Assembly: GCA_902541215.1 (NCBI GenBank)
Contig: CACBPV010000004.1
Span: 18,569-82,568 of the forward strand
DNA length: 64,000 nt
Direction of reading: 5' to 3'
Source: an uncultured Alphaproteobacteria bacterium
GTDB taxonomy: Bacteria; Pseudomonadota; Alphaproteobacteria; HIMB59; GCA-002718135
The notes below the pieces were generated by a model. That model was not told the origin of the DNA. It worked only from the letters and a program-made list of their open reading frames with translations, and ran no database searches. Both the position numbers and the translations under genes were made by a program. This document shows, piece by piece, positions 2,496 to 62,912 of the stretch (its first letter is position 1; each line of letters begins with the position of its first letter).

Positions 2496-2526
2496 TAATT
2501 TTTTTTTTCGTATTAATCTAATTTTT

Positions 2527-5446: not shown

Positions 5447-5456
5447 ATATATTATT

Positions 5457-43305: not shown

Positions 43306-43410
43306 ATTTTTCCCTTGTTTTCTTGTATTTTTTTATTCATGCAAAAAATGCATAGCAAACTTTACTTAAATATTCTTAATAAATTTTAATAATAAAGTAA
43401 ACCAACATTA

Positions 43411-43461: not shown

Positions 43462-43478
43462 ATGCAAAGTTATAAAAT

Positions 43479-43528
43479 CGTTCAATTTGCAGTTTGCGAA
43501 TCGGAAGTAGGTTAAACCGAAGGAACGC
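43479..43528 (+). promoter_or_regulatory. Glutamine riboswitch aptamer (glnA RNA motif), copy 2
   Basis: Sequence CGTTCAATTTGCAGTTTGCGAATCGGAAGTAGGTTAAACCGAAGGAACGC. It has the same invariant strands as copy 1. P2 (ATTTGC/GCGAAT) and P3 (GGT-TAA-ACC) differ in sequence but remain paired. Confidence 0.8.
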
Positions 43529-43620
43529 GGATCTTAGTAATTAATTTCCATAGCTAAGCATGAAAAGTAACACATGACTCAGTGTGAGCCATGTACTGTG
43601 AAATTTATAATGGAGGATTA

Positions 43621-48273: not shown

Positions 48274-48741
48274 ATGGTTATTGATGATTTTAAAGTTCCT
48301 ATTATTAAAAAAGGTATTTCATCTATATCTTCATTAAAAAATGAATTTATAAATAAAAAAAATATTCTATTTGGTGTTCCGGGTGCATTCACGCCAACTT
48401 GTTCTGAGAAACATCTTCCAGGTTACATAAAATTATATAATTCATTTATAAATAAAAAAATTGATGGCATTTACTGTCTATCTGTAAATGATGAACATGT
48501 GATGAAATCTTGGTTATTAAGTTATACTGATGGAGAAAAGATCAATGGAATTGCAGACGGAAATGCTGAGATTACAAAATATTTTGACCTGCTATCTGAT
48601 AAGACAAAAAATTATATGGGCTTTAGGTGTCGAAGGTTTGCCATGATAATTGAGAATAACGTGATTATAAACAAGTTTATTGAAAATGATGGTGAATATA
48701 ATGTTAGTTCAGCTGAATATATTTTAGAACAAATCCAATGA
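48274..48741 (+). CDS. Peroxiredoxin (Prx5 type)
   Basis: PGAFTPTCSEKHLPGY peroxidatic-Cys motif. 155 aa. Confidence 0.87.
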   Translation: MVIDDFKVPIIKKGISSISSLKNEFINKKNILFGVPGAFTPTCSEKHLPGYIKLYNSFINKKIDGIYCLSVNDEHVMKSWLLSYTDGEKINGIADGNAEITKYFDLLSDKTKNYMGFRCRRFAMIIENNVIINKFIENDGEYNVSSAEYILEQIQ

Positions 48742-49475
48742 ATAAGATTAATTTAGAAAATAGAGTAGCAATTGTAACTGGAGGAGCACAAGGCTTTGGG
48801 TTAGCAATTACAAAAAGATTTATAGAGTCAGGTGCAAAAGTATTAATATGGGATAAAGATACAGAATATTTGAATAAAGTTGATTTAAAAAATACTCAAA
48901 AAATTGAAGTTGATGTTTCAAATTACAAAAGTGTAGAGAGTGCATTTGCTGAAAGTCTTAAGTATGAAAACAAAATTGATATTTTAATAAATAATGCAGG
49001 AATAGCTGGACCAAACTTTAAGACATGGGATTATCCACTTGAGGAATGGCAAAAAGTTATAGATATAGATCTAAGTGGAGTATTTTATTGCTGCAAAACT
49101 ATAGTTCCTCATTTTATCAAAAATAATTATGGACGTATCGTTAATATTTCTTCAATAGCTGGCAAGGAGGGTAATCCTAATGCAATGCCTTATAGTGCAG
49201 CAAAAGCAGGAGTTATCGCACTTACTAAATCTTTAGGAAAAGAATTAGCTGAAAATAACATTTCAGTGAATTGTGTTACTCCTGCACCTGCTAAAACGCG
49301 TATTTTTGATCAAATTACCCAAGAACATATTGATTATATGTTATCAAAAATTCCTAGAAATAGATTTGTGTTAGTTGAAGAATTAGCTTCTTTAGTTGCA
49401 TGGATGTCTTCTGAAGAAAATTCTTACACAACAGGCTCAACTTTTGATTTGAGTGGAGGTAGAGCTACTTATTAA
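48738..49475 (+). CDS. Short-chain dehydrogenase/reductase (SDR)
   Basis: TGGAQGFG cofactor motif, NNAG, and catalytic S…YSAAK. Confidence 0.9.
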   Translation: MNKINLENRVAIVTGGAQGFGLAITKRFIESGAKVLIWDKDTEYLNKVDLKNTQKIEVDVSNYKSVESAFAESLKYENKIDILINNAGIAGPNFKTWDYPLEEWQKVIDIDLSGVFYCCKTIVPHFIKNNYGRIVNISSIAGKEGNPNAMPYSAAKAGVIALTKSLGKELAENNISVNCVTPAPAKTRIFDQITQEHIDYMLSKIPRNRFVLVEELASLVAWMSSEENSYTTGSTFDLSGGRATY

Positions 49476-50449
49476 TTTTTTCTTCTTTGTATTAGAGCGT
49501 AGACTGTTACAGCTACTGTAATCATGAGTCCGTTAATAAATTTTACATAAAAACCAGATAACCCTAAAGCAACTATTCCTGATTCTAATGATCCAATAAT
49601 TAATACTCCAATAAAAGTTCCAAAAATAGTACCTTTACCACCAAAGACTGAAGTACCACCAACAAAGACAGCTGCTAGTGTCGTTAACATTAAACCTTCA
49701 CCTTGTGTAGGCCAGAAATATAACATTTCATACATTGTAAAGATTCCTGCTAAAGCAGAGAAAAAACCTAATTGAACAAAAGCAATAATTTTTACATTAT
49801 CAACATTAATTCCCATCATTTGAGCACTTGCTTTGTTGTCACCTACAAAGTGGATGTGATTTCCAAATTTATGGTATCGATAAACCCATTGCATTAATCC
49901 AGTTAAAACAATGAACCAAATAAATTGCATTGGAATTTTTCCAAATAATTTTTCAACAAATATCATATGATGCCAGGTTCCATCTGCCACATCGACGATT
50001 GCAATACCACTACCTTGGGAAATTACATTAACCAATCCACGCCAAAAAAATAATGTCCCTATAGTAGCTACTATTGAAGGAATACCTATTTTAGTAACGA
50101 GTAATCCATTAACCAGACCCGCAAACATTCCAAGAGAAGTTGCAAGTATAAATGCAATGAAAACGTTACCATCAGTTGATGTCATAACCATTCCAAATAT
50201 TAATGAAGTAATTCCAACTATAGAAGGAAATGATAAATCAATTTCACCAAGCGTAACAACAAACGTTGCTGATATAGCAATGATTCCAAAAAAAGGCATT
50301 GATTGCATAAATGCTCTATAAATTGGAAAGCGAGTGAAAACATGTGGTGCACCTAAAAAGTATATTAGAAACAGAACGATTGCGATTATTGTAATACTAA
50401 TCTCAAGTTTATGTGTTTTTACAAAATAACTATTTAATAAATTACTCAT
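49472..50449 (-). CDS. Monosaccharide-type ABC transporter permease (RbsC/FrcC-like)
   Basis: 325 aa, about 9-10 TM segments, last gene of the SBP-ATPase-permease operon. Confidence 0.85.
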   Translation of the reverse strand: MSNLLNSYFVKTHKLEISITIIAIVLFLIYFLGAPHVFTRFPIYRAFMQSMPFFGIIAISATFVVTLGEIDLSFPSIVGITSLIFGMVMTSTDGNVFIAFILATSLGMFAGLVNGLLVTKIGIPSIVATIGTLFFWRGLVNVISQGSGIAIVDVADGTWHHMIFVEKLFGKIPMQFIWFIVLTGLMQWVYRYHKFGNHIHFVGDNKASAQMMGINVDNVKIIAFVQLGFFSALAGIFTMYEMLYFWPTQGEGLMLTTLAAVFVGGTSVFGGKGTIFGTFIGVLIIGSLESGIVALGLSGFYVKFINGLMITVAVTVYALIQRRKN

Positions 50450-51217
50450 TTAATCTTCCACTTTAATTTTCCCAGATTCATGCAACTGTATCATTTTCTG
50501 TACAAGTTCTTCTCTTGATATTTCTTCTTTATTAAACTCTCCTACAACTTCACCCCTATCCAAAATAATAAATCGGTCTGCAGCACCATAGACATGAATT
50601 ATATTATGATCGATAAAAATTGCTGATTTATTTTCATTTTTTAAACCCTTTACGAAATTCAGGACTTTTTCTGTTTCTTGAATTGATAAGCCCATAGTTG
50701 GCTCATCTAATACGATCAAATCAGAATTAAAATATAATGATCTACCAAAAGCAACACCTTGCTTTTCTCCACCAGATAATCCCATTACTTGAGAGTCAAC
50801 CGTTATAGCCTTTGATGTAAATCCAATATAGTCACGAAGAATTTTCTCTGCTTCTTTTCTCTGTTTTTTTATATCTAAAAAGCCAAATGAATTTGTAATT
50901 TCTCTTCCAGCAAATATGTTTCTAAATAATTCTTGTTGATCACACAATGCTCTTTCTTGGTAAACTGCTTCAATTCCCATTTTTCGTGATTGAGCAACTG
51001 ATTTAATTTGTACTTCTTCATTTTTAAAAAATACTTTTCCTGAGTTTGGACTATGAACTCCAGTTATGACTTTTATAAGTGTTGATTTGCCAGCTCCGTT
51101 ATCACCTATTAAAGCTACTACTTCACCTTTATTTATTTTGATGTTTACGTCTTTTAAAACTTTTACGTTTCCAAAGTTTTTGTAAATATTTTCTAATTTT
51201 AAGAGTTCTTCTGCCAT
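50450..51217 (-). CDS. ABC transporter ATP-binding protein (single NBD)
   Basis: Walker A GDNGAGKST, signature LSGGEKQG, Walker B LIVLDEPT. 255 aa. Confidence 0.92.
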   Translation of the reverse strand: MAEELLKLENIYKNFGNVKVLKDVNIKINKGEVVALIGDNGAGKSTLIKVITGVHSPNSGKVFFKNEEVQIKSVAQSRKMGIEAVYQERALCDQQELFRNIFAGREITNSFGFLDIKKQRKEAEKILRDYIGFTSKAITVDSQVMGLSGGEKQGVAFGRSLYFNSDLIVLDEPTMGLSIQETEKVLNFVKGLKNENKSAIFIDHNIIHVYGAADRFIILDRGEVVGEFNKEEISREELVQKMIQLHESGKIKVED

Positions 51218-51262: not shown

Positions 51263-52243
51263 TTATCTTATTTGTACTGCTGCTAATGGAGCAACAGCTT
51301 CCACGTTATCAGCTGTTACAAATGCAGCACCAGTATCCATTGCTAATCCAGCCATTCCATATTTTGTGCTTAGGAATAATTGTACAATAGGCATATAACC
51401 TTGAATAAATGGTTGCTGATCAATTACTACGTCAATGTAACCAGAATTAATTCCATCAACAATAGGAGCTGATAAGTCAAATCCAGCACCACATACTTCT
51501 TCTGTACCATGACCTGCAGCTTTCATGTAAGTAGGTAAACTTGCAGTTAATCCACCATGATCTGTAATTGCCATTTTGATATCAGGATTTGCACTGTAAG
51601 TCGCAACGTACATAGGAGTTCCTTGAGATGCATCTGAGTTTACGTTATCAGGAATTTCTTGATACACAACCTCAACACCAGCTGCTTCAACACCAGCTAT
51701 TGCACCTTTAGTTCTTTCTCCTCTATTTGGCATACTTGCAAGACCCCAAATAAACGCTTTATCTCCAGCTTGAAGCCCACAAACTTCAACAGCTTTTTTA
51801 CCTAGATTAAATCCAGCATCAAATAAATCTGCACCTGCGTAACCAAAACCTTCAGTTTTATATTCTGATTCAAGATCAGGAAGAGGTGTGTTCATAGTAG
51901 TAATTACTATTCCCATTTCTCTAGCCTCTTGAATGATAGGTCTCATTGCAGCATCACCTGGGAAACCATAAATTGCAATTCCATCAGGCTGTAAAGCAAC
52001 AGCTTCTTTAAATTGCTTAATCATAATTTCTGAATTCCATTGTGACCAGTAATAATCTACGTCACAACCAGTATGTTCTGCTGCAGCTACTGCACCATTG
52101 TAAACGATAGTTCCAAATGGTCCACCTTCTGGCCCACCTGGGAAAAAGATAAATTTCTTATCACAGCTGTAATCATTTTTTGCTACTGCTGAAGTAGATA
52201 CAAAAGCAAAAAATAGAGCAATGACGGCAAAAATTTTTTTCAT
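51263..52243 (-). CDS. Periplasmic sugar-binding protein (RbsB/LacI-type fold) of the ABC transporter
   Basis: Signal peptide MKKIFAVIALFFAFVSTSAVA/K. 326 aa, first gene of the operon. GGAGGAATT RBS upstream on the minus strand. Confidence 0.85.
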   Translation of the reverse strand: MKKIFAVIALFFAFVSTSAVAKNDYSCDKKFIFFPGGPEGGPFGTIVYNGAVAAAEHTGCDVDYYWSQWNSEIMIKQFKEAVALQPDGIAIYGFPGDAAMRPIIQEAREMGIVITTMNTPLPDLESEYKTEGFGYAGADLFDAGFNLGKKAVEVCGLQAGDKAFIWGLASMPNRGERTKGAIAGVEAAGVEVVYQEIPDNVNSDASQGTPMYVATYSANPDIKMAITDHGGLTASLPTYMKAAGHGTEEVCGAGFDLSAPIVDGINSGYIDVVIDQQPFIQGYMPIVQLFLSTKYGMAGLAMDTGAAFVTADNVEAVAPLAAVQIR

Positions 52244-52432
52244 AATTCCTCCAAATAATTTATGATTTATTTTATAAGTGATTAAATCAATAATACAATT
52301 AAATTAAAGTATTATACGTCTTATTACATTCATATTCTTGAACTCCTGGATAGATTAAATGGTCGCACTTAATCAGGAATTTAATTTATTTTTTATATTT
52401 ATAATATTATCAAAAAGTGGTATTTTTTAATA

Positions 52433-53419
52433 ATGGATGTTGATTTAGGTAAATGGTATAGAGCCAACATAGATAAAAAAGAATTTAAACAATTATGTGT
52501 GAAATCTGATTGGCAAGGTTTCAAACACATGATTATTTTTTTCTCTTCTTTGGTTCTTTTCGGTTATTTAGCATATGTTACTTGGGGTACTTGGTGGTCT
52601 TTACTATTTTTTTTAATATATGGAAACATTTGGGGATGCAGTGATGCTATTTGGCACGAAACTGGTCATAGAACAGCATTTAAATCTAAATTCTGGAATG
52701 ACTTCTTTTATTACATAGCCAGCTTTATGGATAACTTTGAGCCGATTAGATGGAGGTATTCACACTACCATCATCATACCTATACTCAATTTAATGATCC
52801 TGTAGATTTTGAAATACATGTTAAAAAACCAACTGACCTGATTGTATTTTTCTCTCACTATATTCCATTTTCAGGTTTATTTTTCTTTAAAAATTCTCTT
52901 CAATGGGAAACTATAAAACATGCCTTCGGTGTAACTACAGATGTAATGAAAGTTTGTATTCCTGAAAACGAAAGATGGAAATGTAGATTATCCGCTTGGA
53001 GTCATCTCTCTATTTGGATCATAAGTATTGCTTCTTCAGTATACTTTCAAAGCTGGCTTCCAGTTCTATATGTTTTATTGCCTAATTTTTATGGAAAAAC
53101 CCTTGTCATGCTTATGGGCCTTACTCAGCACGCCGGACTTAGAGAAGATAAAAGAGATCATAGGTATACAACCAGAACGGTATATTTAAATCCAGTTTTA
53201 AGTTTTTTATATTGGCATATGGAATATCATGTTGAGCACCATATGTTCCCTCAAGTTCCCTCACATAATTTACCTAAACTACATGCTATGATTAAAGATC
53301 AATTACCACCTGCCAGAAAAGGTCTTCTAGGCGCTTATAAAGAAATTGTTCCAGCACTCATAAAACAAGCAAAAAATCCAGACTATCAAATTCCATTATC
53401 TGTTCCTAGTAACGCTTAA
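52433..53419 (+). CDS. Membrane fatty-acid-desaturase-family di-iron oxygenase, paralog 1
   Basis: His boxes HETGH, HYHHH and HVEHH plus QHAG. Hydrophobic helices between the boxes. Confidence 0.8.
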   Translation: MDVDLGKWYRANIDKKEFKQLCVKSDWQGFKHMIIFFSSLVLFGYLAYVTWGTWWSLLFFLIYGNIWGCSDAIWHETGHRTAFKSKFWNDFFYYIASFMDNFEPIRWRYSHYHHHTYTQFNDPVDFEIHVKKPTDLIVFFSHYIPFSGLFFFKNSLQWETIKHAFGVTTDVMKVCIPENERWKCRLSAWSHLSIWIISIASSVYFQSWLPVLYVLLPNFYGKTLVMLMGLTQHAGLREDKRDHRYTTRTVYLNPVLSFLYWHMEYHVEHHMFPQVPSHNLPKLHAMIKDQLPPARKGLLGAYKEIVPALIKQAKNPDYQIPLSVPSNA

Positions 53420-53424
53420 ACTTA

Positions 53425-54654
53425 GTGAAAAAAAACATTATAATTTTAGGCGGTGGTCAAGCCGGAATCTATGCTGCAAGAGAAATTAGAAAAAATGATA
53501 CAGAATCAAATATTAAAATTTTAGGTGAAGAAAATTTATTACCATACGAAAGACCTCCTTTATCTAAAGATTTTTTGCTAGATAAAAAAAATGAACAAGA
53601 TCTCTATTTTCATTCTAGCGAAGTACTAAAAAATGAAAATATAGATTTTGAAAATATATTAATTACTAAAGTTGACTTTGAACATAAAAAACTTTTCTCA
53701 AAAAATGAAGATGTTTACACTTATGATACTTTACTGATTTCAACAGGTTCCGATAATAAAAGACTTAGCCTAGATAATAATTTAAACGATGATGTTTATT
53801 ATCTAAGAAACTTAGAAGAAGCCAAAACAATTAAGGAAAAAGTTTTAAATAAAAATAAAATAACTATTATTGGTGGTGGTTTCATTGGTTTAGAAATTGC
53901 TTCATCTTTATCTCAACTTCAAAAGAAAGTAACTGTTATCGAAATCAGTAATCAACTTATGGGAAGAATTATACCCAAACAAATTGCTGATTTAGTTCAA
54001 AGCACTCATATAGATCATGGAAATAAAATAATATTAAATAAACAGATAGATAAAATAACTAAAAAAAATGATAATTTTGAAATTTTATTAAACGATAATT
54101 CTTTAATAGAAACAGATTTTGTAATTGCAGGTATAGGCTCAACTCCGTCTGTAAAGTTATTTGAAAATACAAATTTAAAGCTTGATAACGGTATAGTTAC
54201 TAATCAATTTTGTGAAACTTCTATTAAAAATGTTTATGCAGCAGGTGATGTATCTAATTTTTATCATCCATTATATGAAAGAAATATGCGACTTGAGTCT
54301 TATCAACATGCACAAAATCATGGAATATGTGCTGGAAAAAATATTGCTGGAGTAAAAACAGAATACACTTCAATTCCTTGGATGTGGTCTGATCAATTTA
54401 ATTTGAATCTTCAACTGACTGGTATTTGTGATGAGTATGATGAAATCATCGAAAGAGGTAATGATATTAATAAAGGTGTTATTTATTTTTTCCTAAAAAA
54501 TAATAAAATAAGAGGAGCATGTGGTGTTGGAATCATAGGAAAAGTAGGCCGTGACATTAGAATAACTTCTAAATTAACTGAGAAAGATACCATTGTAGAT
54601 AAACAAATTCTCTCAGATCAAAATCTAAAATTAAATAAACTTATACAAAAATAA
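53425..54654 (+). CDS. FAD-dependent NAD(P)H:ferredoxin reductase (pyridine nucleotide-disulfide oxidoreductase family)
   Basis: GTG start. FAD motif IIILGGGQAG, NAD motif ITIIGGGFIGLEIAS, and AAGDV. 409 aa, as for BphG/TodA/putidaredoxin-reductase-type reductases. Confidence 0.87.
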   Translation: MKKNIIILGGGQAGIYAAREIRKNDTESNIKILGEENLLPYERPPLSKDFLLDKKNEQDLYFHSSEVLKNENIDFENILITKVDFEHKKLFSKNEDVYTYDTLLISTGSDNKRLSLDNNLNDDVYYLRNLEEAKTIKEKVLNKNKITIIGGGFIGLEIASSLSQLQKKVTVIEISNQLMGRIIPKQIADLVQSTHIDHGNKIILNKQIDKITKKNDNFEILLNDNSLIETDFVIAGIGSTPSVKLFENTNLKLDNGIVTNQFCETSIKNVYAAGDVSNFYHPLYERNMRLESYQHAQNHGICAGKNIAGVKTEYTSIPWMWSDQFNLNLQLTGICDEYDEIIERGNDINKGVIYFFLKNNKIRGACGVGIIGKVGRDIRITSKLTEKDTIVDKQILSDQNLKLNKLIQK

Positions 54655-54706
54655 CAATTTAATTATTTTGTATTTATTTTCATAAAATAGCTATTATATA
54701 CAAACT

Positions 54707-55024
54707 ATGTCTGAAAAAAATTGGATTGAAGTAGGGTCTACAGATAGTATTGAAGAAGAGGATCTCATCAGATTTGATCATCAAGATAAAACTTTTTGTG
54801 TGTATAAGCTAACAGATGGTTTTTATGCTACTGATGGAATTTGTACACACGAGGCGGTACATCTTGAAGATGGTTTGGTTATGGATGATGAAATTGAATG
54901 TCCAATGCACCAGGGAATTTTTAATATTAAATCTGGAGAAGCTTTAAGCCCACCAGCGTGTGAGGATTTAAAAACATATCCAGTTAAAGTTGATAATGAC
55001 AAAATTTTCATTAAGATAGATTAA
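54707..55024 (+). CDS. Rieske [2Fe-2S] ferredoxin
   Basis: CTHEAVH … CPMHQGIF (C-x-H / C-x-x-H). 105 aa, no oxygenase catalytic domain. Confidence 0.87.
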   Translation: MSEKNWIEVGSTDSIEEEDLIRFDHQDKTFCVYKLTDGFYATDGICTHEAVHLEDGLVMDDEIECPMHQGIFNIKSGEALSPPACEDLKTYPVKVDNDKIFIKID

Positions 55025-55043
55025 CTATTTTTTTGGAGATTTT

Positions 55044-55871
55044 ATGAGCAGAAAAAAACTTACAGTTTATGATTATTTGCAATGCAAGGGTAAAAGACAA
55101 CTAAGTGTTATGTTCGTGCATAATGCTGATGAAGCTGCAGCAGCTGAAGAAGCAGGCATTAACATGATTTGTACTTCTCATGATGCTCCACAATTTGGTA
55201 TTTTCAATTCTTTTGATGAGCTTAAGCGAATTCGCGAGGCTGCACCAACTTGCTTTATGCAATCCGGAGGAGCAGTAAGAGTAGCTTCTGAATACGAAGC
55301 AATGAAACTATCACACAAGTATTTAGACATTGGTGCAGATGTTATCTATGGTGGTAATTGGAGTTACAAATGGATTAGAGCATTAAGAGATGAATATGTT
55401 CCAATTAATAGTCATGTTGGATTAGTTCCAGGAAATGCTACTTGGATTGGAGGATTTGTTGCACAAGGTAAAACAGCAGATAAAGCCATAAGAATATTAG
55501 AACATACTCTTGAGTTACAAGAAGCGGGTGCTATTGGAGTTGAACTCGAAGTAGTTCCACCAAAAGTTGCAGAAGTTATTACAAAAAAAGTTGATATCAT
55601 GACTCTCTCAATGGGAAGTGGTTCTGGATGTGATGGGCAATATTTATTTGCTAATGATGTACTCGGATATACTCAAGGAAAAATTCCAAGACATGCACGA
55701 ATTTATAGAGATTTTAAAAAAGAATTTTCAAAACTACAAGCTGAAAGAGTAAATGCATTCAAAGAGTTTCACGATGATACGGTAAACAAAAAATTTAATG
55801 ATCCTAAAATCACTGTTAATATTGATGAAGGTGAATTTGAAAAATTTTTAAAGCTTTCAGAAAAATTTTGA
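55044..55871 (+). CDS. 3-methyl-2-oxobutanoate hydroxymethyltransferase (PanB)-family protein, divergent
   Basis: Collinear with PanB (…SHVGLVPGN…GGF.AQGK…LQEAGAIGVELEVVP…). The canonical N-terminal GDSLGM strand is not recognisable. Confidence 0.7.
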   Translation: MSRKKLTVYDYLQCKGKRQLSVMFVHNADEAAAAEEAGINMICTSHDAPQFGIFNSFDELKRIREAAPTCFMQSGGAVRVASEYEAMKLSHKYLDIGADVIYGGNWSYKWIRALRDEYVPINSHVGLVPGNATWIGGFVAQGKTADKAIRILEHTLELQEAGAIGVELEVVPPKVAEVITKKVDIMTLSMGSGSGCDGQYLFANDVLGYTQGKIPRHARIYRDFKKEFSKLQAERVNAFKEFHDDTVNKKFNDPKITVNIDEGEFEKFLKLSEKF

Positions 55872-55874
55872 TTA

Positions 55875-56891
55875 ATGTTCGCGGGCGAAGTTGATTTAAA
55901 AACTTGGTATAAACCAAAAATAGATAAGAAAACTTTAAAGGAACTTTCTAAGAGATCCGATATTAAAGGTTTATTAGATATATACGTATTTATTGTTGCT
56001 TTAATATTAAGTGGATATCTGTGTATTATAAGTTGGGGTAGTTTATGGTCAATACCTGCTCTTTTACTTTATGGAAATATTTTCTATTGTAAAATCATAA
56101 GCATTCAACATGAAACAAATCACGAAACATATTTTAAAACAAGAGCGTTAAATAAATTTTTTTATCATATAACTTCTTTACTCGGTGGTTTTGAGGCAGT
56201 TAGATGGAAGTGGAGTCATTTTCATCACCATACTTACACCATATTTACACATGAGGAGGTGTATGATTACGAAAATAATAGTCCGAAACCAACAGAACCT
56301 GTCAGATTTCTTTTAAATTTTTTACCCCTTGGTCCAATAATTAATATTCAAAAAATAAGACATTTTACGCATTTTGAAATTATTAAACATTCATTTGGGA
56401 TAATTACTCCTGTTGTAAAAGTTACAGTACCTGAAAAAGAGATAAAAAAAATAATTAATAGTTCAAGATTATATTTAAGTTTTTGGCTACTTGTAATTTT
56501 ATCCTCAGTTTTGCTTCAATCATGGTTGCCAATTATTATGATAATTTTTCCTCCATTTTATGGCAACACTGTATTAATGATTTGTGCCATGACTCAACAC
56601 GCAGGACTAGCCGATAATATTAAAGATCATAGAAAAAGTACAAGAACTGTTATTATGAATCCCCTTTTTAGTTTTTTGTATTCAAACATGGAGTATCATA
56701 TTGAGCACCATATTTTCCCAAAAATCCCATGCCATAATTTAAAAAAATTTCACAAAATAGTTAAAAATCAAATGCCAGAACCTCACAACGGAATAATTTC
56801 TGCTTATAGATCAATAATCCCAGCAATATTTAAGCAATCTAAAGATAAAAATTATTATATTGATGTGAAGGTTCCAGATACGACAATTTAG
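55875..56891 (+). CDS. Membrane fatty-acid-desaturase-family di-iron oxygenase, paralog 2
   Basis: Collinear with 52433..53419 over its whole length. His boxes HETNH, HFHHH and HIEHH plus QHAG. Confidence 0.8.
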   Translation: MFAGEVDLKTWYKPKIDKKTLKELSKRSDIKGLLDIYVFIVALILSGYLCIISWGSLWSIPALLLYGNIFYCKIISIQHETNHETYFKTRALNKFFYHITSLLGGFEAVRWKWSHFHHHTYTIFTHEEVYDYENNSPKPTEPVRFLLNFLPLGPIINIQKIRHFTHFEIIKHSFGIITPVVKVTVPEKEIKKIINSSRLYLSFWLLVILSSVLLQSWLPIIMIIFPPFYGNTVLMICAMTQHAGLADNIKDHRKSTRTVIMNPLFSFLYSNMEYHIEHHIFPKIPCHNLKKFHKIVKNQMPEPHNGIISAYRSIIPAIFKQSKDKNYYIDVKVPDTTI

Positions 56892-56929
56892 TCTCTTTTT
56901 TTTTATTCAAAATATACTATAAATACAAC

Positions 56930-57934
56930 ATGGGTAATCAATTAAATGATAGTGATTTTGGTACAAGAGATAAAAGAGGTCATTGGAAACCATTTGGTAC
57001 AATAAGTATTAACCCACCTAAAGATATATTTTTTAACCCAATAAAATTTTTAAAGTATTTTTTTAAATTTCCTGGAATTTTTTTCCCATGGACTTTTGTC
57101 TTTGCAGCAATAACAGTTGCTACATATCTTTTTTTGACTCCTTCTTTAGAGACAATGAAAACTTTTGAAATAGGATGGATATCATATATATTTTTTAGAA
57201 ATGCAGTTATTATTTTGCTCTGGACAGGCTTCTTTCATTTAAGATTAAAGACACAAGGAACTTCATTTAAATATAATCCGCGACCTTTGGAGAAAAATAA
57301 CTCAACATTTCTATTTAATGATCAGACTAAAGATAACCTATTCTATACTTTTTGTAGTGCTATTCCATTGTGGACAGCTTATGAAGTAATTACATTTTGG
57401 GCATTTGCAAATCAAATAATCCCTTATGTAAGCTGGGAGACGTATCCAATATATTGTTGTTTTATGTTCTTTCTTGTCCCGTTTATAAGAGACGCACATT
57501 TTTACTTAACTCATAGATTATTACACTGGGCACCACTTTATAAAATTGCACATAAAGTACACCACCGTAATACGAATACAGGTGCTTGGTCAGGTATGTC
57601 TATGCATCCAATAGAGCATATACTCTATTTTTCAGGAATCTTAGTTCATTGGATAATCCCTTCACATCCTCTTGTTGCGATGTATCATGTATTTCATGCT
57701 GGTTTAGCACCTACACCTGGACATACAGGATATGAAAAAATGACTTTCAAAAATGGTGTATCAATACCAACAGGTGATTATATGCATTATATTCATCATA
57801 AATATTTTGAATGCAATTATTCAGGTGGAAATACTAGTTTCTTAGATAAATTAATGGGTACGTTCCATGATGGATCTGAAGAAGCAACGAAAGAAGTAAT
57901 GGCTCGTATTAAAGATAAAGCACATTATCTCTAA
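56930..57934 (+). CDS. Fatty acid hydroxylase / sterol desaturase superfamily membrane di-iron oxygenase
   Basis: His motifs HRLLHW, HKVHHRN, HPIEH and HYIHHKY. N-terminal TM segments. Confidence 0.8.
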   Translation: MGNQLNDSDFGTRDKRGHWKPFGTISINPPKDIFFNPIKFLKYFFKFPGIFFPWTFVFAAITVATYLFLTPSLETMKTFEIGWISYIFFRNAVIILLWTGFFHLRLKTQGTSFKYNPRPLEKNNSTFLFNDQTKDNLFYTFCSAIPLWTAYEVITFWAFANQIIPYVSWETYPIYCCFMFFLVPFIRDAHFYLTHRLLHWAPLYKIAHKVHHRNTNTGAWSGMSMHPIEHILYFSGILVHWIIPSHPLVAMYHVFHAGLAPTPGHTGYEKMTFKNGVSIPTGDYMHYIHHKYFECNYSGGNTSFLDKLMGTFHDGSEEATKEVMARIKDKAHYL

Positions 57935-57978
57935 ACTTATCTTCATAAATTTTAAATTTTATTATAATGATCTAAAAT

Positions 57979-58854
57979 ATGAGTAAGGTCGAATTATATA
58001 AAGATGTAAAAAATAGTTTGGGAGAAGGTATCACGTGGTCTTCAATTGATCAAAGTTTACTTTGGGTAGATATTAAACCAAAATCAGTTTTATTCAGAAT
58101 TGATTTAGATAACGAAAAATTAGAAACTTTTGATTTACCTGATTTTGTAACAGCAACATCAATAATCTCAAAGAATGAAATTGCTTTAGTCTCAAATAAT
58201 GGAGTAAATAAATTTAACTTTCAATCTAAAAAATACGAAAGAATAATTAATGTTGAAGATGATATTTTAACAAATAGATCTAATGATGGTGCCTCTGATG
58301 CTAGGGGCAGGCTCTGGTTTGGCACTATGCAAAATAATTTTAATCAAGATGGAAGTGCAAAATCTTTAAATGCTAAATCTGGAAGTTTATATTGTCTATC
58401 TGACAATAAGGTAAATATTGTTGAAACAAATCTTGGTATACCCAATACATTTATTTGGAGTCCAGATAATACGAAATTTTATTTTGCCGATACAACTGAG
58501 GGATCATTACTAGAATACAATTTTAACCTAGATAAAGGTAGTTTGTCAGACAAAAAAAATTTCTTCAATTTTGATAGAGGTGCTCCAGATGGATCAACTA
58601 TTGATAGCGATGGCTTTATTTGGAATTGTCGTTGGGGTGGTTCATGTGTAGTGAGAATTGATCCTAAAGGAAGAATAGATAAAATCTATGAGCTACCTGT
58701 TGAAAATGTAACAAATTGTGTATTTGGAGGAAGTGATCTTAAAACTTTATTTATTACAAGTGCTACAAATTCAGGTAAAAATCAATATGATGGTAGTCTA
58801 TTTGCATTAAATGTTAATGTGTCTGGACTTGAAGATAATAAATTTAAAATTTGA
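57979..58854 (+). CDS. SMP-30/gluconolactonase/LRE-family lactonase
   Basis: LGEGITWS, NDGASDARGRLWFGTM, PNTFIWSPD and PDGSTIDSDGFIW six-blade propeller motifs. Confidence 0.87.
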   Translation: MSKVELYKDVKNSLGEGITWSSIDQSLLWVDIKPKSVLFRIDLDNEKLETFDLPDFVTATSIISKNEIALVSNNGVNKFNFQSKKYERIINVEDDILTNRSNDGASDARGRLWFGTMQNNFNQDGSAKSLNAKSGSLYCLSDNKVNIVETNLGIPNTFIWSPDNTKFYFADTTEGSLLEYNFNLDKGSLSDKKNFFNFDRGAPDGSTIDSDGFIWNCRWGGSCVVRIDPKGRIDKIYELPVENVTNCVFGGSDLKTLFITSATNSGKNQYDGSLFALNVNVSGLEDNKFKI

Positions 58855-58886
58855 TTTTTTACTTTATTTAGCTAAAACTTTCACAC

Positions 58887-60620
58887 ATGAATAAAAAAAA
58901 TAAATATAGATCTTCTAATTGGTATAATTCTAAATCACATCGAAGAGATACATTTATTCATAGAGGCTGGATGAGAAATCAAGGTCATCCAAATCATTTG
59001 TTTGATGGCCGTCCTGTAATTGGAATTTGTAATACATGGTCAGAATTAACTCCTTGTAATGGTCATTTCAGAGAGATAGCTGAGTCTGTTAAAAAAGGTG
59101 TTTATGAAGCTGGCGGTTTTCCTCTTGAATTTCCTGTTTTTTCAGCAAGTGAATCCAATTTAAGACCTACAGCTATGTTGTTTAGAAATTTAGCAAGTAT
59201 GGATGTTGAAGAGGCAATAAGGGGTAATCCTATAGACGGAGTCGTATTATTAATGGGTTGTGATAAAACAACACCTTCATTAATGATGGGAGCTGCAAGC
59301 GTAGATCTTCCTACAATAGGTGTTTCAGGTGGCCCAATGCTTAATGGACACCATCAGGGTGAAACAATAGGTTCTGGCACTGGTGTTTGGAAACTTGATG
59401 CAGATTTAAACGCTGGTGTAATTACAGAAGAAGATTTTATTAATGCAGAAATTTCAATGAGTAGATCAAAAGGTAATTGTATGACAATGGGTACTGCATC
59501 AACAATGGGATCAATGGTGGAAGCATTAGGGATGTCACTACCTGGAAATGCTGCGATACCTGCAGTTGACTCAAGAAGATATGCTTTAGCTCATATGTCT
59601 GGAAAAAGAATTGTTGAAATGGTTAAGGAAGATATAACTATGTCAAAAATTGTTACAAAAAAATCATTTGAAAATGCAATCAAGGTCAATGGAGCAATAG
59701 GGGGATCTACAAATGCAGTTATCCATCTAGCTGCAATCGCAGGTCGAATGGAAATAGATTTAGATTTAGAAGATTGGAATAAATGTGGAGATGGTATTCC
59801 AACATTAGTAAATCTACAACCTTCTGGAAAATACTTAATGGAAGATTTTTATTATGCAGGTGGTGTTCCTGTAGTTATAAAAAGATTAATGGAAAAAAAT
59901 CTATTAGAAGAAAATGAAATGACTGTTAATGGAAAAACTATATCTGAGAATAATATAAATGCTAAATGTTGGAACAATGATGTTATCAAAGAATTTGAAA
60001 ATCCTTTAACAAAAAATGGAGGAATTAAAATTCTTAGGGGTAATATTGCTCCAAATGGTGCAATTATTAAACCATCAGCTGCATCACCAGAATTAATGAA
60101 ACATACTGGAAAAGCGGTAGTTTTTGAAAGTGTAGAAGAATTTCATGAAAAGATTGATGATCCCAATTTAGACGTTGATGAAAATTCAATATTAGTTTTA
60201 AAAAATTGTGGGCCAAAGGGTTACCCTGGTATGGCTGAAGTAGGTAATATGCGTCTTCCACAAAAAGTTCTTAAAAAAGGTGTGAGAGATATGATTAGAA
60301 TATCTGACGCTAGAATGAGTGGTACAGCATACGGTACGGTAATACTTCATACATCTCCAGAAGCTGCAGTTAAAGGTCCTTTAGCAGCAGTTCAAAATGG
60401 TGATGAAATAGAAGTAGATGTTGATCAGGGTATAATGAATTTAAAAGTTAATGAAGAAACAATAAAAAATCGTCTAGAAAATTATTCACCTGTTGTTCCA
60501 GAAATCACAGGTGGTTATCAAAAAATGTATGTAGAGCATGTTATGCAAGCTGACAAAGGAGCAGATCTTGATTTTCTTATTGGAAAAAGAGGAGCCGAAG
60601 TAAAAAGACATAGTCATTAA
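58887..60620 (+). CDS. IlvD/Edd-family dehydratase (sugar-acid dehydratase type)
   Basis: GICNTWSE, MGCDKTTPS and RISDARMSGTAYG motifs. 577 aa, with an N-terminal extension as in arabinonate/xylonate dehydratases. Confidence 0.9.
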   Translation: MNKKNKYRSSNWYNSKSHRRDTFIHRGWMRNQGHPNHLFDGRPVIGICNTWSELTPCNGHFREIAESVKKGVYEAGGFPLEFPVFSASESNLRPTAMLFRNLASMDVEEAIRGNPIDGVVLLMGCDKTTPSLMMGAASVDLPTIGVSGGPMLNGHHQGETIGSGTGVWKLDADLNAGVITEEDFINAEISMSRSKGNCMTMGTASTMGSMVEALGMSLPGNAAIPAVDSRRYALAHMSGKRIVEMVKEDITMSKIVTKKSFENAIKVNGAIGGSTNAVIHLAAIAGRMEIDLDLEDWNKCGDGIPTLVNLQPSGKYLMEDFYYAGGVPVVIKRLMEKNLLEENEMTVNGKTISENNINAKCWNNDVIKEFENPLTKNGGIKILRGNIAPNGAIIKPSAASPELMKHTGKAVVFESVEEFHEKIDDPNLDVDENSILVLKNCGPKGYPGMAEVGNMRLPQKVLKKGVRDMIRISDARMSGTAYGTVILHTSPEAAVKGPLAAVQNGDEIEVDVDQGIMNLKVNEETIKNRLENYSPVVPEITGGYQKMYVEHVMQADKGADLDFLIGKRGAEVKRHSH

Positions 60621-60639: not shown

Positions 60640-61689
60640 ATGAATAACAATTTTAATCCTTTGTCTGCTGAAGAATTAACTTCAAGAATAAATAAAATTC
60701 CTAGAGTTAATCTAGCTCAATTACCTACTGTACTTGAATTTGCACCTAATATTTCTAAAGAGTTGGGTATAAATCTTTATATCAAACGAGATGATTGCAC
60801 TGCATTAGCTTTTGGGGGAAATAAAACAAGGCATTTAGAGTTTATAATGGCTAAAACATTATCTGGAGATTATGACTGTATTTTAACTGGGGCTGCATCT
60901 CAATCTAATTTTTGCCGCCAAGCTGTAGCTGCTGCAAATAAACTAAATTTAGATAGTTATTTAGTATTAATGCACGGAATAAAAGGTAACTTAATGCAAG
61001 GTAATTTTTTATTATATAATATTCTAGGCGCTAATGTTGATGTTATTGATGGTGAGAATTTAGAAGAAATACCAAAGCATTTAGATATAAAATATAATGA
61101 GTTAATAAAAGAAGGTCGAAAACCTCTATTAATTTATGGAGGATTTGGAAAAGAGGATACCACTCTTGCTGGTATAAGTTATGCAAATGCTATGGCTGAA
61201 ATTGATTTACAAATGAAAGAGCAAAATTTTATGGCAGATCATCTATTTGTTACTGCTGCTAATATGACACAAGCAGGTTGTGAATTAGGAGCTAAGATAT
61301 TAAATTGGCCAACTCGTATTCAAGGTATTTCTCCTGTTTATTGGGAAATGGATATTAAAAAAGATATAGCGAGAATATGTAATGATGCAGCAAAGATGCT
61401 TGATATTAATTTAGAGTTTTCACATAAAATGATTAATCATGACAATAATTATGTAGGTGAAAAATATGGTGCGACTACAGAAGATGGAATAAAAGCAACA
61501 AAGCTTTTAGCTAATAAAGAGGGAATTATTTTAGATCCAGTTTATACATCAAAAGGTTTTGCAGCTTTAATTGATTATGTTGAAAAAGGAATCATTAAGA
61601 AAGGTGAAAACGTCATTTTTATGTTCACTGGTGGTAGTCCGGCAGTTTTTGCATATAACGATGAAATTGCAAATAATTCTAATCAATAA
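60640..61689 (+). CDS. PLP-dependent ACC deaminase / D-cysteine desulfhydrase-family enzyme
   Basis: KRDDCTALAFGGNKTRHLEF (PLP-lysine region) and C-terminal FMFTGGSPAVFAY. Confidence 0.8.
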   Translation: MNNNFNPLSAEELTSRINKIPRVNLAQLPTVLEFAPNISKELGINLYIKRDDCTALAFGGNKTRHLEFIMAKTLSGDYDCILTGAASQSNFCRQAVAAANKLNLDSYLVLMHGIKGNLMQGNFLLYNILGANVDVIDGENLEEIPKHLDIKYNELIKEGRKPLLIYGGFGKEDTTLAGISYANAMAEIDLQMKEQNFMADHLFVTAANMTQAGCELGAKILNWPTRIQGISPVYWEMDIKKDIARICNDAAKMLDINLEFSHKMINHDNNYVGEKYGATTEDGIKATKLLANKEGIILDPVYTSKGFAALIDYVEKGIIKKGENVIFMFTGGSPAVFAYNDEIANNSNQ

Positions 61690-62863
61690 TTTCAAATTTA
61701 TCTAAATATTTATTTGATAACTTAATACCTAATCCATGTTTATTTTCATCTAATTCGATAAAACCATTTTTTGCTTGAGGTTCGCCATCAAAAATATACC
61801 AAAATAATTCATTACCAATTTCTACAGGCCAAAATGGAAAATACTCAACTATTGGAGCGTTTGCTGAACTCATAGAAATATGAAAATTATGAACTTGTCC
61901 TGCGTGAGGAATAACTGGTATTTGAAATGCTTCAGCTAAAGCAGAAATTTTATGTGCCTGTGTTATACCACCAACTCTATTCGTATCAAATTGCACAACA
62001 TCAATTGCTTTTTTTTCTAGTAATTGTCTAAAACCAAAAAGTGTATATTCATGTTCACCACCAGATATAGGAGTTCTACATGAGGCTTTTAGATCTGCAT
62101 AACCATCAATATCATCAGCAATAACTGGTTCTTCTAACCAACGAAGATTTTCATTATCAATTAATCGCATCATTCTTTTTGCATATTCAAATGTCCATCC
62201 CATATATACATCTGCCATAAGATCAACATTATCACCAACAACTGATCGCACTGTTTTGATTAACTCAATATTTTTATGCATACCTTCAGCACCATCAGTG
62301 GGACCCCAACCAAGTCTTAATTTCATTGCTTTAAAACCTTGATCAACATAATCCTTAGCTTCTTTTGCAAGACTATCAAGAGGTTGACTATAAAGCTTAC
62401 TTGCATAACAGGGGAGTTTTGATTTAGTTTTTCCACCTAATAATTTGAATACGGGTTGTTTAGCAGATTTTCCAAGTGCATCCCATATTGCAATATCAAC
62501 AGCACTAATAGCTGTCATACCTACACCTTTTCTCCCCCAAGCTAGTGTTTGGCGATACATCTTTTGCCATATATGCTCATAATCCCATATACTTTCACCA
62601 ATAATGGCTGGAGCTAAGTAAGTATCTACAACTGATTTACATGGTTCTGGGGATAATGCTGCATTACCTAAACCTACCAAACCATCACTTGTTTCAATCT
62701 CAACAACTAACCAGCTATGAAATTTATATGTTGTCCATCTATCACTTGAAATATTTTCTTGATTCACAATATCTGCAGCATTTGTGCAAAAATTTTCGTG
62801 AATTTTTTGAATGGGCCCTGTCCATTTATAGACCTTTGCTTTAACATTTACAATTTTACTCAC
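61679..62863 (-). CDS. Enolase-superfamily dehydratase (mandelate racemase subgroup, L-rhamnonate dehydratase-like)
   Basis: AISAVDIAIWDALGK, FKAMKLRLG, LMADVYMGW, RWLEEP, ISGGEHEY and VIPHAG patterns. Confidence 0.85.
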   Translation of the reverse strand: MSKIVNVKAKVYKWTGPIQKIHENFCTNAADIVNQENISSDRWTTYKFHSWLVVEIETSDGLVGLGNAALSPEPCKSVVDTYLAPAIIGESIWDYEHIWQKMYRQTLAWGRKGVGMTAISAVDIAIWDALGKSAKQPVFKLLGGKTKSKLPCYASKLYSQPLDSLAKEAKDYVDQGFKAMKLRLGWGPTDGAEGMHKNIELIKTVRSVVGDNVDLMADVYMGWTFEYAKRMMRLIDNENLRWLEEPVIADDIDGYADLKASCRTPISGGEHEYTLFGFRQLLEKKAIDVVQFDTNRVGGITQAHKISALAEAFQIPVIPHAGQVHNFHISMSSANAPIVEYFPFWPVEIGNELFWYIFDGEPQAKNGFIELDENKHGLGIKLSNKYLDKFEIID

Positions 62864-62912
62864 AAAATAATTATTATACTAATTTAAATCAATTTAAGAG
62901 AATTTTTTAATA

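Follow-up and report, generated by a model that had tools for sequence, protein, structure and literature searches.

The MocDEF proteins of rhizopine catabolism were described in 1998 as a 'ferredoxin oxygenase complex' (Bahar 1998), and a recent review states that MocDEF demethylates 3-O-methyl-scyllo-inosamine and is functionally analogous to XylMA. Rhizobial operons with 'mocDEF' genes linked to a LacI regulator have been suggested to catabolise an inositol derivative, and their counterparts in P. syringae have been called unresolved. In marine bacteria 6-O-methyl-D-galactose is demethylated to galactose, with formaldehyde as the other product, by a cytochrome P450 that acts with a ferredoxin and its reductase; this reaction is linked, genetically and physiologically, to formaldehyde detoxification (PMC6292453, PMC9400963, PMC10033563). 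The present analysis concerns a stretch of 64,000 nucleotides from contig CACBPV010000004.1 of an uncultured alphaproteobacterium (hereafter the window), which holds at positions 52433–57934 a cluster of six genes for three membrane di-iron oxygenases, a Rieske ferredoxin, a flavin adenine dinucleotide (FAD)-dependent reductase and a protein derived from PanB.

The evidence suggests that the cluster encodes a MocDEF-type three-component monooxygenase that has been expanded in SAR11 and acts on imported methylated or deoxy sugars or cyclitols, probably by methyl hydroxylation or demethylation, a reading to which a probability of roughly 55% was assigned. The original prediction had regarded the cluster as a new hybrid outside established knowledge. 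This view was not supported, since the design is that of MocDEF of rhizopine catabolism, known since 1998; the architecture is of an already established kind that has been biochemically neglected. MocDEF is known mainly from genetics. What appear to be undescribed so far are the several terminal oxygenases drawn from two families, the PanB-derived partner and the sugar-acid context in SAR11.

Gene content of the cluster

The 64-kb window was scanned and its open reading frames (ORFs) from 43.6 to 63.9 kb were profile-searched against Pfam and NCBIfam. The six genes at 52433–57934 all lie on the + strand, with spacers of 5, 52, 19, 3 and 38 nt in order, confirming the layout and the 3–52 nt spacing first reported for them, and all six score well over the Pfam gathering thresholds. 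The first gene (52433–53419, +) encodes membrane di-iron oxygenase 1, a MocD-like protein of 328 aa in the FA_desaturase family (PF00487, 114.5 bits against a cutoff of 29.7). It is followed by a MocF-like FAD-dependent ferredoxin-NAD(P)+ reductase of the HcaD/AndAa type (53425–54654, +; 409 aa; Pyr_redox_2 208.4 bits, Reductase_C 49.6 bits) and a Rieske [2Fe-2S] ferredoxin of the MocE type (54707–55024, +; 105 aa; Pfam Rieske 60.5 bits), giving the gene order D-F-E. The PanB-derived protein (55044–55871, +; 275 aa) matches Pantoate_transf at 127.8 bits over residues 82–251 only. Downstream lie membrane di-iron oxygenase 2, a MocD-like paralogue of 338 aa (55875–56891, +; PF00487 115.3 bits against 29.7), and membrane di-iron oxygenase 3, a protein of 334 aa in the FA_hydroxylase or 'sterol desaturase' family (56930–57934, +; PF04116 71.3 bits against 31). 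The quoted motifs were all present, comprising the His boxes, QHAG and the Rieske signature CTHEAVH...CPMH. The flanks were also as described, with a sugar ATP-binding cassette (ABC) importer upstream and sugar-acid catabolic genes downstream, and neither the ORFs of the window nor the Pfam and NCBIfam scans revealed lipid genes near the cluster.

Kinship with MocDEF and search for electron acceptors

The ferredoxin scored 136.0 bits against TIGR02377, the model of the MocE family 2Fe-2S type ferredoxin, 0.15 bits short of the cutoff of 136.15. It is at most 61% identical to proteins named 'MocE family 2Fe-2S type ferredoxin' by the Prokaryotic Genome Annotation Pipeline, including mocEa of R. 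etli CIAT 652, and it also matches the HcaC and AndAb models. The reductase matched the NCBIfam models HcaD (303.8 bits) and AndAa (285.3 bits) under their equivalog cutoffs and is 30–31% identical to genes in the mocF position of rhizobia. In a comparison with loci L004–L076 the reductase diverges much faster than its neighbours, with 82–91% identity in near-identical genomes against 94–100% for the other genes; in more distant SAR11 loci it is 54–71% identical, compared with 73–94% for the ferredoxin.

Oxygenase 1 shows 40–43% full-length identity to genes annotated as mocD or hydrocarbon oxygenase in R. etli and S. meliloti; the MocDEF proteins studied by experiment are those of R. leguminosarum 1a and S. 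meliloti L5-30. In rhizobia these homologues stand in the order LacI regulator, oxygenase, Rieske ferredoxin, FAD reductase and PanB-like gene. The annotation of the S. meliloti 1021 genes SM_b20817-20 gives a LacI regulator for the first and the names 'hydrocarbon oxygenase mocD', 'ferredoxin mocE' and 'ferredoxin reductase mocF' for the other three. Related modules were found in other bacteria. In Caballeronia the order is oxygenase, ferredoxin, reductase, substrate-binding protein (SBP), permease and ATPase, with an IlvD-like gene alongside, and in the marine Rhodobacterales genus Marivivens the oxygenase is accompanied by MocE, a PanB-like gene, a xylose-isomerase-like TIM barrel and an ABC importer of the carbohydrate uptake transporter 2 (CUT2) type, followed by iolG-iolC-iolD.

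A motif scan revealed a single Rieske signature in a real ORF within the window, that of the ferredoxin itself, and none of 86 related loci (about 1.6 Mb) contained a Rieske-motif ORF of at least 250 aa. A ring-hydroxylating system of the Tod, Bph or Hca type was rejected, as its catalytic alpha subunit is absent from the window and from the 86 loci. The same absence bears out the proposal that this electron chain has no plausible acceptors other than the membrane di-iron enzymes. The proposal that several terminal oxygenases share one chain was likewise supported, because both oxygenase families sit in one SAR11 cluster with a single ferredoxin/reductase pair, and each of the two His-box families occurs with MocE and reductase genes.

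The membrane oxygenases

The His boxes of oxygenase 1 are HETGH, HYHHH and HVEHH, and those of oxygenase 2 are HETNH, HFHHH and HIEHH, each with an additional QHAG motif; the two proteins are 44% identical over their full length. The eight canonical histidines of oxygenase 1 (75/79, 111/114/115 and 266/269/270) were invariant in 50 sequences, as were three further histidines, His233 (in QHAG), His163 and His243. Oxygenase 2 is 34–39% identical to the rhizobial and Caballeronia homologues.

Profile searches gave the assignment to FA_desaturase and FA_hydroxylase and placed the MocD-like enzymes outside the acyl-lipid desaturase equivalogs. The two MocD-like proteins gave 35.9 and 34.1 bits against DesB and 17.6 and 26.7 bits against DesA, compared with cutoffs of 500. 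Other weak NCBIfam matches were to GntB (L-arginine gamma-hydroxylase, 44.2 bits) and CrtR (26.1 bits), where equivalog cutoffs are 380–500. The sequence of oxygenase 1 gave no match to Protein Data Bank (PDB) chains even at E = 1, and only the fold search returned matches. This search used Foldseek with an AlphaFold2 model of oxygenase 1 (predicted local distance difference test score 90.2, predicted template-modelling score 0.88). It matched only AlkB (8F6T and 8SBB; probability 1.0, template-modelling (TM) score 0.40–0.51, E 0.013–0.033) and desaturase-like subunits of chloroplast FtsHi motor complexes (TM score 0.62–0.64), and returned no match of the SCD1 type. The modelled fold thus appears to be of the hydroxylase type, which supports the proposed monooxygenase. 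An acyl-lipid or acyl-CoA desaturase (DesA, DesB or SCD) was rejected on the scores of 17.6–35.9 bits against cutoffs of 500 and on the lack of an SCD1 fold match.

The FA_hydroxylase-type protein carries the His motifs HRLLH, HKVHH and HYIHH, and its sequence is unrelated to those of oxygenases 1 and 2. Its homologues are 38–42% identical over the full length, and the motifs HxxxxH, HxxHH, HxxxH and HxxHH are conserved in six of them. This family also has modules of its own, in which the FA_hydroxylase homologue directly precedes genes for a MocE-type ferredoxin and a reductase; they were found in S. meliloti pSymA, Mesorhizobium and Paracoccus yeei. On S. meliloti S35m pSymA (L086, 9958–13572) the module comprises the FA_hydroxylase, a ferredoxin, a sugar SBP of the Peripla_BP_4 family and a reductase. 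On a Paracoccus yeei plasmid (L092, 6849–12453) the order is LacI, FA_hydroxylase, MocE, SBP, reductase and TIM-barrel isomerase. On a plasmid of Mesorhizobium sp. 131-3-5 (L091, 7844–13576) it is FA_hydroxylase, MocE, reductase, GntR, S-(hydroxymethyl)glutathione dehydrogenase and TIM-barrel isomerase. The Mesorhizobium dehydrogenase clears its equivalog cutoff (582.8 against 543.95 bits). S-(hydroxymethyl)glutathione dehydrogenase is the enzyme of glutathione-dependent formaldehyde oxidation, and its presence in an FA_hydroxylase operon is to be expected if the oxygenase is an oxidative demethylase. A Chloroflexota homologue with 58% identity lies beside a sugar ABC importer of the CUT1 type, a Gfo/Idh/MocA oxidoreductase and a thiamine pyrophosphate (TPP) enzyme; another homologue is solitary and next to FolD. 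The pSymA locus, which carries a second class of MocE, was considered as a genuine rhizopine mocCABRDEF locus and rejected, as it contains no MocA, MocB, MocC or MocR; the Mesorhizobium and Paracoccus loci, which came from MocE matches of lower identity, are of the same FA_hydroxylase type.

The PanB-derived protein

The PanB-like protein fell below the PanB cutoffs, scoring 103.1 bits against TIGR00222 (cutoff 207.55) and 116.3 bits against NF001452 (cutoff 272). Matches to PanB in the PDB were confined to residues ~60–230, the C-terminal two-thirds, at an E-value of about 1e-22. E. coli PanB was aligned with 15 sequences of this family, taken from SAR11, Rhizobium, Sinorhizobium and Marivivens. 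Every one of the 15 retains His136, Glu181 and the GGxxxxGK loop of the E. coli protein, and every one lacks Asp45, Asp84 and Glu114 and carries Tyr at the position of Lys112. We take Asp45, Asp84, Lys112, Glu114, His136 and Glu181 of E. coli PanB to be metal ligands and substrate-binding and catalytic residues, and the positions lost in the PanB-like family presumably hold Mg2+ and the substrate carboxylate in the E. coli enzyme; these roles reportedly come from the E. coli PanB structure of von Delft in 2003. The family has features of its own, namely a PRHAxxYRxF motif and a C-terminal extension.

Full-length identity between the SAR11 protein and its operon counterparts in Rhizobium, Sinorhizobium and Marivivens is 41–44%. 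A tblastn search found the PanB-like gene in 271 plasmid records (140 Rhizobium, 86 Sinorhizobium, 9 Ensifer), and this distribution is mirrored by oxygenase 1, found on 294 plasmids or megaplasmids (146 Rhizobium, 85 Sinorhizobium, 9 Ensifer). A protein search with the PanB-like sequence returned only close SAR11 relatives among the 120 best matches listed. The gene never adjoins panC in the loci examined. The scores below the cutoffs, the loss of four conserved PanB positions and the co-distribution with the oxygenase indicate, at the level of sequence, that this is a distinct, neofunctionalised PanB-derived partner of the MocD-like oxygenases and not a genuine PanB. Automatic annotation nevertheless names it '3-methyl-2-oxobutanoate hydroxymethyltransferase', with Gene Ontology (GO) terms for pantothenate biosynthesis, in SAR11, Rhizobium and Marivivens records (window 55044–55871; L084 10574–11383; L085 11302–12102; L093 6986–7801), which is probably a systematic mis-annotation. 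The embedded gene is no peculiarity of this locus. It is a conserved operon partner, found in 60 of 64 SAR11 loci and in Rhizobium, Sinorhizobium and Marivivens.

The window has one such gene. A second PanB-like paralogue of about 45% identity lies between the oxygenase 2 and FA_hydroxylase genes in other SAR11 loci (L008, L031, L035, L040, L043–L045, L048, L051–L054, L059, L065 and L066), and one of these (L053) holds a third paralogue (41%) near the start of the locus.

Behind the PanB-like gene of R. etli and R. johnstonii come the gene of a conserved protein of 332 aa with a C-terminal NrtR-type winged-helix domain (L084 11408–12406; L093 7831–8829) and then nadA-nadB-nadC. The 333-aa gene in this position in R. 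etli was considered as a counterpart of the FA_hydroxylase gene and rejected, as it gave no tblastn match and carries the NrtR-type winged-helix domain.

Conservation and transcription in SAR11

A scan of GTDB species representatives placed the window in the Pelagibacteraceae (SAR11). Dozens of single-cell genomes hold it at 95–99% protein identity, and Ca. Pelagibacter sp. Uisw_094 holds it at 82%. The proteins of the window were mapped to 80 loci from the scan and to three plasmid loci, and the 64 SAR11 loci with enough flanking sequence were counted. The divergent SBP and the PanB-like gene were each present in 60 of these, the Rieske ferredoxin and reductase in 55, the FA_hydroxylase in 53 and the second MocD-like paralogue in 50. 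The arrangement of the cluster is conserved far beyond chance, because the SBP, PanB-like, Rieske ferredoxin, reductase and other genes are kept in most of the 64 loci. The six-gene neighbourhood is therefore a conserved one in SAR11, and the linkage of oxygenase, ferredoxin and reductase extends to other lineages. The cluster is at the same time accessory and variable within SAR11. A reduced form was found in six loci, in which the SBP is divergent from a PanB-like gene followed by an oxygenase and lactonase genes, with no ferredoxin or reductase. In two further loci oxygenase 1 stands beside the importer, again with no ferredoxin or reductase, and distant PanB-like (31–34%) and desaturase-family (28–29%) genes lie downstream.

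Seawater metatranscriptomes from several studies contain about 35% of the 31-mers of the locus, and metatranscriptome contigs from four studies cover it. These contigs bridge the junctions of oxygenase 1 with the reductase, of the ferredoxin with the PanB-like gene and of the PanB-like gene with oxygenase 2, as well as those of the FA_hydroxylase with the lactonase (57661–58015) and of the lactonase with the dehydratase (58144–58936). The locus is thus transcribed in seawater, and the contigs show presence and likely co-transcription, short of proof of an operon. Word depth in the four metatranscriptomes was 275–5800 for the SBP and 1–400 for the other genes of the locus, so that transcripts of the SBP exceed those of any other gene of the locus by one to two orders of magnitude. 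In one contig (run X3) oxygenase 1 runs straight into the corresponding part of oxygenase 2 (52981 to 56625), with 3643 nt skipped. This junction is most likely an assembly chimera between the paralogues, the alternative being a rare recombinant allele without the reductase, ferredoxin and PanB-like genes.

A second locus (L078–L083, all with one layout) was found in single amplified genomes (SAGs) that hold the main cluster. In the example from SAG AG-891-E17 (L079, 2657–15363) the gene order is a desaturase-family protein (362 aa), an aldehyde dehydrogenase, a CUT2 SBP, ATPase and permease, ThuA, a Gfo/Idh/MocA oxidoreductase, a second desaturase-family protein (333 aa), a CUT1 SBP, two permeases and a MalK-type ATPase. 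Neither a ferredoxin nor a reductase gene was present in the 21 kb examined, and the only Rieske/reductase pair seen in the SAR11 loci examined is that of the window cluster. A streamlined genome of ~1.3 Mb therefore carries up to four MocD-like oxygenases and one of the FA_hydroxylase type, all in sugar-uptake operons.

Neighbouring genes

The importer upstream of the cluster is encoded on the − strand. It comprises a periplasmic sugar-type SBP with a signal peptide (51263–52243), which gave weak PDB matches to CUT2 sugar SBPs and is divergent from oxygenase 1 in 60 of the 64 loci; a single-cassette ATPase of the sugar type (50450–51217), with NCBIfam matches to YtfR, XylG and RbsA over one cassette; and a permease of the CUT2 or ribose type (49472–50449), which matched the NCBIfam ribose and arabinose permeases at 134 bits, under the equivalog cutoffs. 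The ATPase is syntenic, as is the permease in SAR11 loci. A published survey of the SBPs of HTCC1062 has no counterpart of the window SBP. Beyond the permease lies a dehydrogenase of the short-chain dehydrogenase/reductase (SDR) family (48738–49475, +), possibly a sugar 1-dehydrogenase, a generic member that scored under the FabG and glucose 1-dehydrogenase cutoffs. It is syntenic in most SAR11 loci and may belong to the pathway.

Between the SBP and oxygenase 1 is a divergent, AT-rich intergenic region (52244–52432) that would hold the promoters; no Rfam family matched within it. A palindrome at 52353–52374, the only GC-richer one, was considered as a conserved operator and rejected, as it is present in 5 of 63 distinct loci.

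Downstream of the cluster, a lactonase of the SMP-30/gluconolactonase family (57979–58854, +; PF08450 241.9 bits; syntenic) and an aldonate (arabinonate-like) dehydratase of the IlvD/Edd family (58887–60620, +; NF004784 914 bits; L-arabinonate dehydratase 835.7 against a cutoff of 882) are probable subsequent catabolic steps. The genes within 60640–63890 encode a PLP (pyridoxal phosphate) enzyme like D-cysteine desulfhydrase or CuyA, an L-rhamnonate-dehydratase-like enzyme of the MR (mandelate racemase) family and a PdxA-family dehydrogenase, all under equivalog cutoffs. When the lactonase and the IlvD-type dehydratase are counted in, the group has the look of an uncharacterised catabolic island for sugar acids, possibly amino-sugar acids. 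Further upstream, tandem glutamine riboswitch aptamers (RF01739; 63.8 and 57.2 bits) lie at 43409–43464 and 43477–43531 (+), just upstream of an ammonium transporter gene (43591–44907, PF00909), and are unrelated to the oxygenase cluster.

Proposed function and alternative explanations

In the proposed mechanism NAD(P)H would reduce the FAD reductase (53425–54654), which would pass electrons to the soluble MocE-type Rieske ferredoxin (54707–55024) and through it to the di-iron centres of the three membrane oxygenases, two MocD-like and one of the FA_hydroxylase type. The substrates would not be membrane lipids. They would be carbohydrate-like small molecules, namely methylated or deoxy sugars or cyclitols, that enter through the divergent and very highly expressed ABC importer. 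The chemistry would most likely be methyl hydroxylation, which for an O-methyl group amounts to oxidative demethylation with release of a one-carbon (C1) unit at the formaldehyde level. The PanB-derived protein may then take the hydroxymethyl or C1 unit, either transferring it to tetrahydrofolate (THF), which would fit the THF-linked C1 oxidation of SAR11, or, where a C-methyl group has been hydroxylated, cleaving off the resulting C-hydroxymethyl group in a retro-aldol reaction, and the demethylated sugar would pass to the adjacent dehydrogenase, lactonase and aldonate dehydratase. The scheme builds on the observed gene content, families, conservation, transcription, importer linkage, altered PanB positions and AlkB-like fold, and on the lack of a Rieske alpha subunit. 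We infer from these the path of the electrons, the nature of the substrates and their presence in soluble form in the cytoplasm, demethylation as the chemistry and the part played by the PanB-like protein.

An imported small molecule as substrate, in place of a membrane acyl chain, had been suggested from the window, and this suggestion gained support: the oxygenases are almost always linked to an importer, and importers of the sugar ABC type accompany them in SAR11, Sinorhizobium, Caballeronia, Marivivens, Paracoccus and Chloroflexota. Release of a C1 unit is supported by the S-(hydroxymethyl)glutathione dehydrogenase in the Mesorhizobium operon, by the descent of the partner protein from PanB and by the P450 analogue. 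PanB enzymes move hydroxymethyl (C1) units between methylene-THF and carbons adjacent to a carbonyl, and for this reason the PanB-like protein may act in C1 handling.

Several observations weigh against this reading. Six SAR11 loci keep the oxygenase and the PanB-like gene without the ferredoxin and reductase, so the electron donors may be replaceable. The reductase and the second MocD-like paralogue are low in RNA contig depth, and the metatranscriptome contigs are unstranded and may contain DNA. A rhizopine (moc) locus as such was rejected, as the ORFs scanned from 43.6 to 63.9 kb include no mocA (Gfo/Idh/MocA), mocC-type TIM barrel or mocR, and the sole NCBIfam match of the SBP (51263–52243), to the rhizopine-catabolism SBP model, reached 83.9 bits against a cutoff of 420, so that the SBP is not a member of that family. 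The term 'MocDEF-like' draws on a family model, on annotation transfer and on identities of 40–61%, and should be read as a putative assignment. The literature searched gives no substrate or activity for any close homologue, the LacI-linked rhizobial 'mocDEF' operons included. The PanB-like protein is not obligatory, since the Caballeronia module has no such gene. Its role is the weakest link of the model, because O-demethylation needs no second enzyme and the hemiacetal collapses spontaneously.

The alternative that survives best keeps the same system and an imported carbohydrate and replaces demethylation by another reaction. The oxygenases would hydroxylate a C–H bond of a deoxy sugar (for instance turning fucose, rhamnose or quinovose into a hexose by attack on the C6 methyl), hydroxylate a ring carbon or introduce a desaturation, and the PanB-like protein would act on a keto-sugar or keto-acid in the manner of a class-II aldolase or an isomerase. 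The weak GntB match (44.2 bits) shows that the family includes small-molecule hydroxylases, and AlkB, which the modelled fold of oxygenase 1 matches, is a methyl hydroxylase. An L-rhamnonate-dehydratase-like MR-family enzyme and an arabinonate-like dehydratase lie nearby, and an aldehyde dehydrogenase adjoins a paralogue in the second SAR11 locus. PanB-like paralogues increase in number as the oxygenases do, reaching three in L053, and this speaks for a protein that recognises a sugar-derived intermediate or product over one that recognises free formaldehyde. Against this stand the reported demethylase function of MocDEF, the only system of the same architecture with a reported function, the formaldehyde-pathway dehydrogenase inside one FA_hydroxylase-type operon and the C1-transfer chemistry of PanB. 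This alternative was judged rather unlikely.

A biosynthetic role, in which the cluster tailors a sugar- or cyclitol-derived metabolite such as an osmolyte, a signal or a surface component, was considered improbable. The family member GntB is biosynthetic, and SAR11 accessory regions are reported often to encode surface-glycan genes (PMC11898729). An ABC system that depends on an SBP works as an importer, however, and the SBP transcript here ranks with the most abundant; the neighbours, a lactonase and aldonate dehydratases, are of catabolic type, the locus has no glycosyltransferase or nucleotide-sugar genes, and LacI-type regulators, which are typical of catabolic operons, control the rhizobial homologues.

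Modification of the cell's own membrane lipids by acyl desaturation or hydroxylation, with the position among sugar genes being incidental, is more improbable still. The Pfam families FA_desaturase and FA_hydroxylase, the weak DesA/DesB and CrtR matches and the 'lipid metabolic process' GO term of FA_hydroxylase homologues point in that direction. The scores are nevertheless 20–36 bits against equivalog cutoffs of 475–500, no lipid genes lie nearby, and several classes and phyla show the same linkage to SBP-dependent sugar importers, LacI regulators, iol genes and TIM-barrel sugar isomerases; a cluster that is accessory and variable within SAR11 and an oxygenase model with no SCD1-type structural match also argue against it. 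That the ferredoxin and reductase serve a soluble Rieske oxygenase elsewhere in the genome while the membrane enzymes use another donor is highly improbable, for although the pair also matches the HcaC/HcaD and AndAb/AndAa models and six SAR11 loci have the oxygenase without it, no alpha subunit was found in the 64-kb window or in about 1.6 Mb of related loci, and ferredoxin and reductase keep their place beside His-box oxygenases in SAR11, Rhizobiaceae, Phyllobacteriaceae, Rhodobacterales and Burkholderiaceae.

The preferred reading, a MocDEF-type monooxygenase acting on imported methylated sugars or cyclitols, can be extended to a broader scheme that is possible but doubtful. Here four MocD-like oxygenases and one of the FA_hydroxylase type, a single Rieske/reductase pair and a family of PanB-derived C1 enzymes would strip methyl groups from the methylated sugars or cyclitols of marine dissolved organic matter, sending the C1 units to THF-linked oxidation for energy and the skeletons to sugar-acid catabolism. 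SAR11 has THF-linked C1 oxidation, according to a passage of the HTCC1062 SBP survey. If true, the scheme would connect the cycling of marine carbohydrates with the C1 metabolism of SAR11 in a way not described so far, and would add to the P450 route a new enzymatic means of demethylating sugars; demethylation itself would tie carbohydrate turnover to SAR11 C1 oxidation. SAR11 is the most abundant heterotroph of the surface ocean and has very few genes for carbohydrate use. A conserved and expressed locus of this kind, with so abundant an SBP transcript, would mark a class of dissolved organic carbon that SAR11 consumes. The MocDEF design has remained essentially uncharacterised biochemically since 1998, and the present analysis shows its wide spread, a second His-box family with MocE ferredoxins and a dedicated PanB-derived partner. 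Mis-naming of the latter as PanB can falsely credit SAR11 and rhizobial replicons with a step of vitamin B5 synthesis.

Comparison with known systems

No paper was found that joins rhizopine or moc genes with SAR11, or that joins a desaturase, a Rieske protein and ketopantoate hydroxymethyltransferase, and two SAR11 pangenome papers and the SAR11 Genome Atlas preprint make no mention of these genes. For the rhizobial operons, a literature search with the S. meliloti locus tags found only one paper, in which they appear as co-expressed neighbours, and none that gives a function; an R. leguminosarum insertion sequencing (INSeq) paper gives no phenotype for the operon, and a paper on bacterial pinitol has no MocD-type enzymes.

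The SAR11 cluster resembles MocDEF in combining a membrane oxygenase of the FA_desaturase family with a MocE-type Rieske ferredoxin and an FAD reductase and in having no Rieske alpha subunit. Both are linked to a sugar-type periplasmic binding protein or importer, and the role reported for MocDEF is the demethylation of an imported cyclitol derivative. The SAR11 cluster differs from the rhizopine moc genes in its D-F-E order, where moc has D-E-F, in placing two MocD-like oxygenases and one FA_hydroxylase-type oxygenase on one electron chain with an embedded PanB-derived gene, and in its downstream route, which is a sugar-acid pathway and not the inositol pathway.

The closest relatives outside SAR11 are the LacI-linked 'mocDEF' genes of S. 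meliloti 1021 (SM_b20817-20 and a PanB-like gene), R. etli CIAT 652 (pA mocD-mocEa-mocFa) and R. johnstonii 3841 (pRL11). They form the same four-gene module, with identities of 40–43% for the oxygenase, 54–61% for the ferredoxin, 30–31% for the reductase and 41–43% for the PanB-like protein. They differ in having a single oxygenase, a LacI regulator and a xylose-isomerase-like TIM barrel, with no FA_hydroxylase gene.

AlkB with rubredoxin and XylM with XylA are likewise built around integral-membrane His-box di-iron methyl hydroxylases, and AlkB is the only functionally characterised Foldseek match of oxygenase 1. In oxygenase 1 the QHAG motif with His233 lies between the second and third His boxes, and AlkB has an additional His-containing motif at what is presumably a comparable place. 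The electron donors differ, being rubredoxin or the plant-type ferredoxin-reductase fusion XylA in those systems and a Rieske ferredoxin with a glutathione-reductase-type reductase here, and their substrates are hydrophobic hydrocarbons, in contrast to the polar imported carbohydrates presumed for the SAR11 enzymes.

The P450 system of Zobellia and Formosa (Bacteroidota) is, like the system proposed for SAR11, a marine three-component oxidative sugar demethylase. It differs in using a soluble haem P450 in place of membrane di-iron enzymes, in the type of its ferredoxin, in its host lineage and in its location within polysaccharide-utilisation loci.

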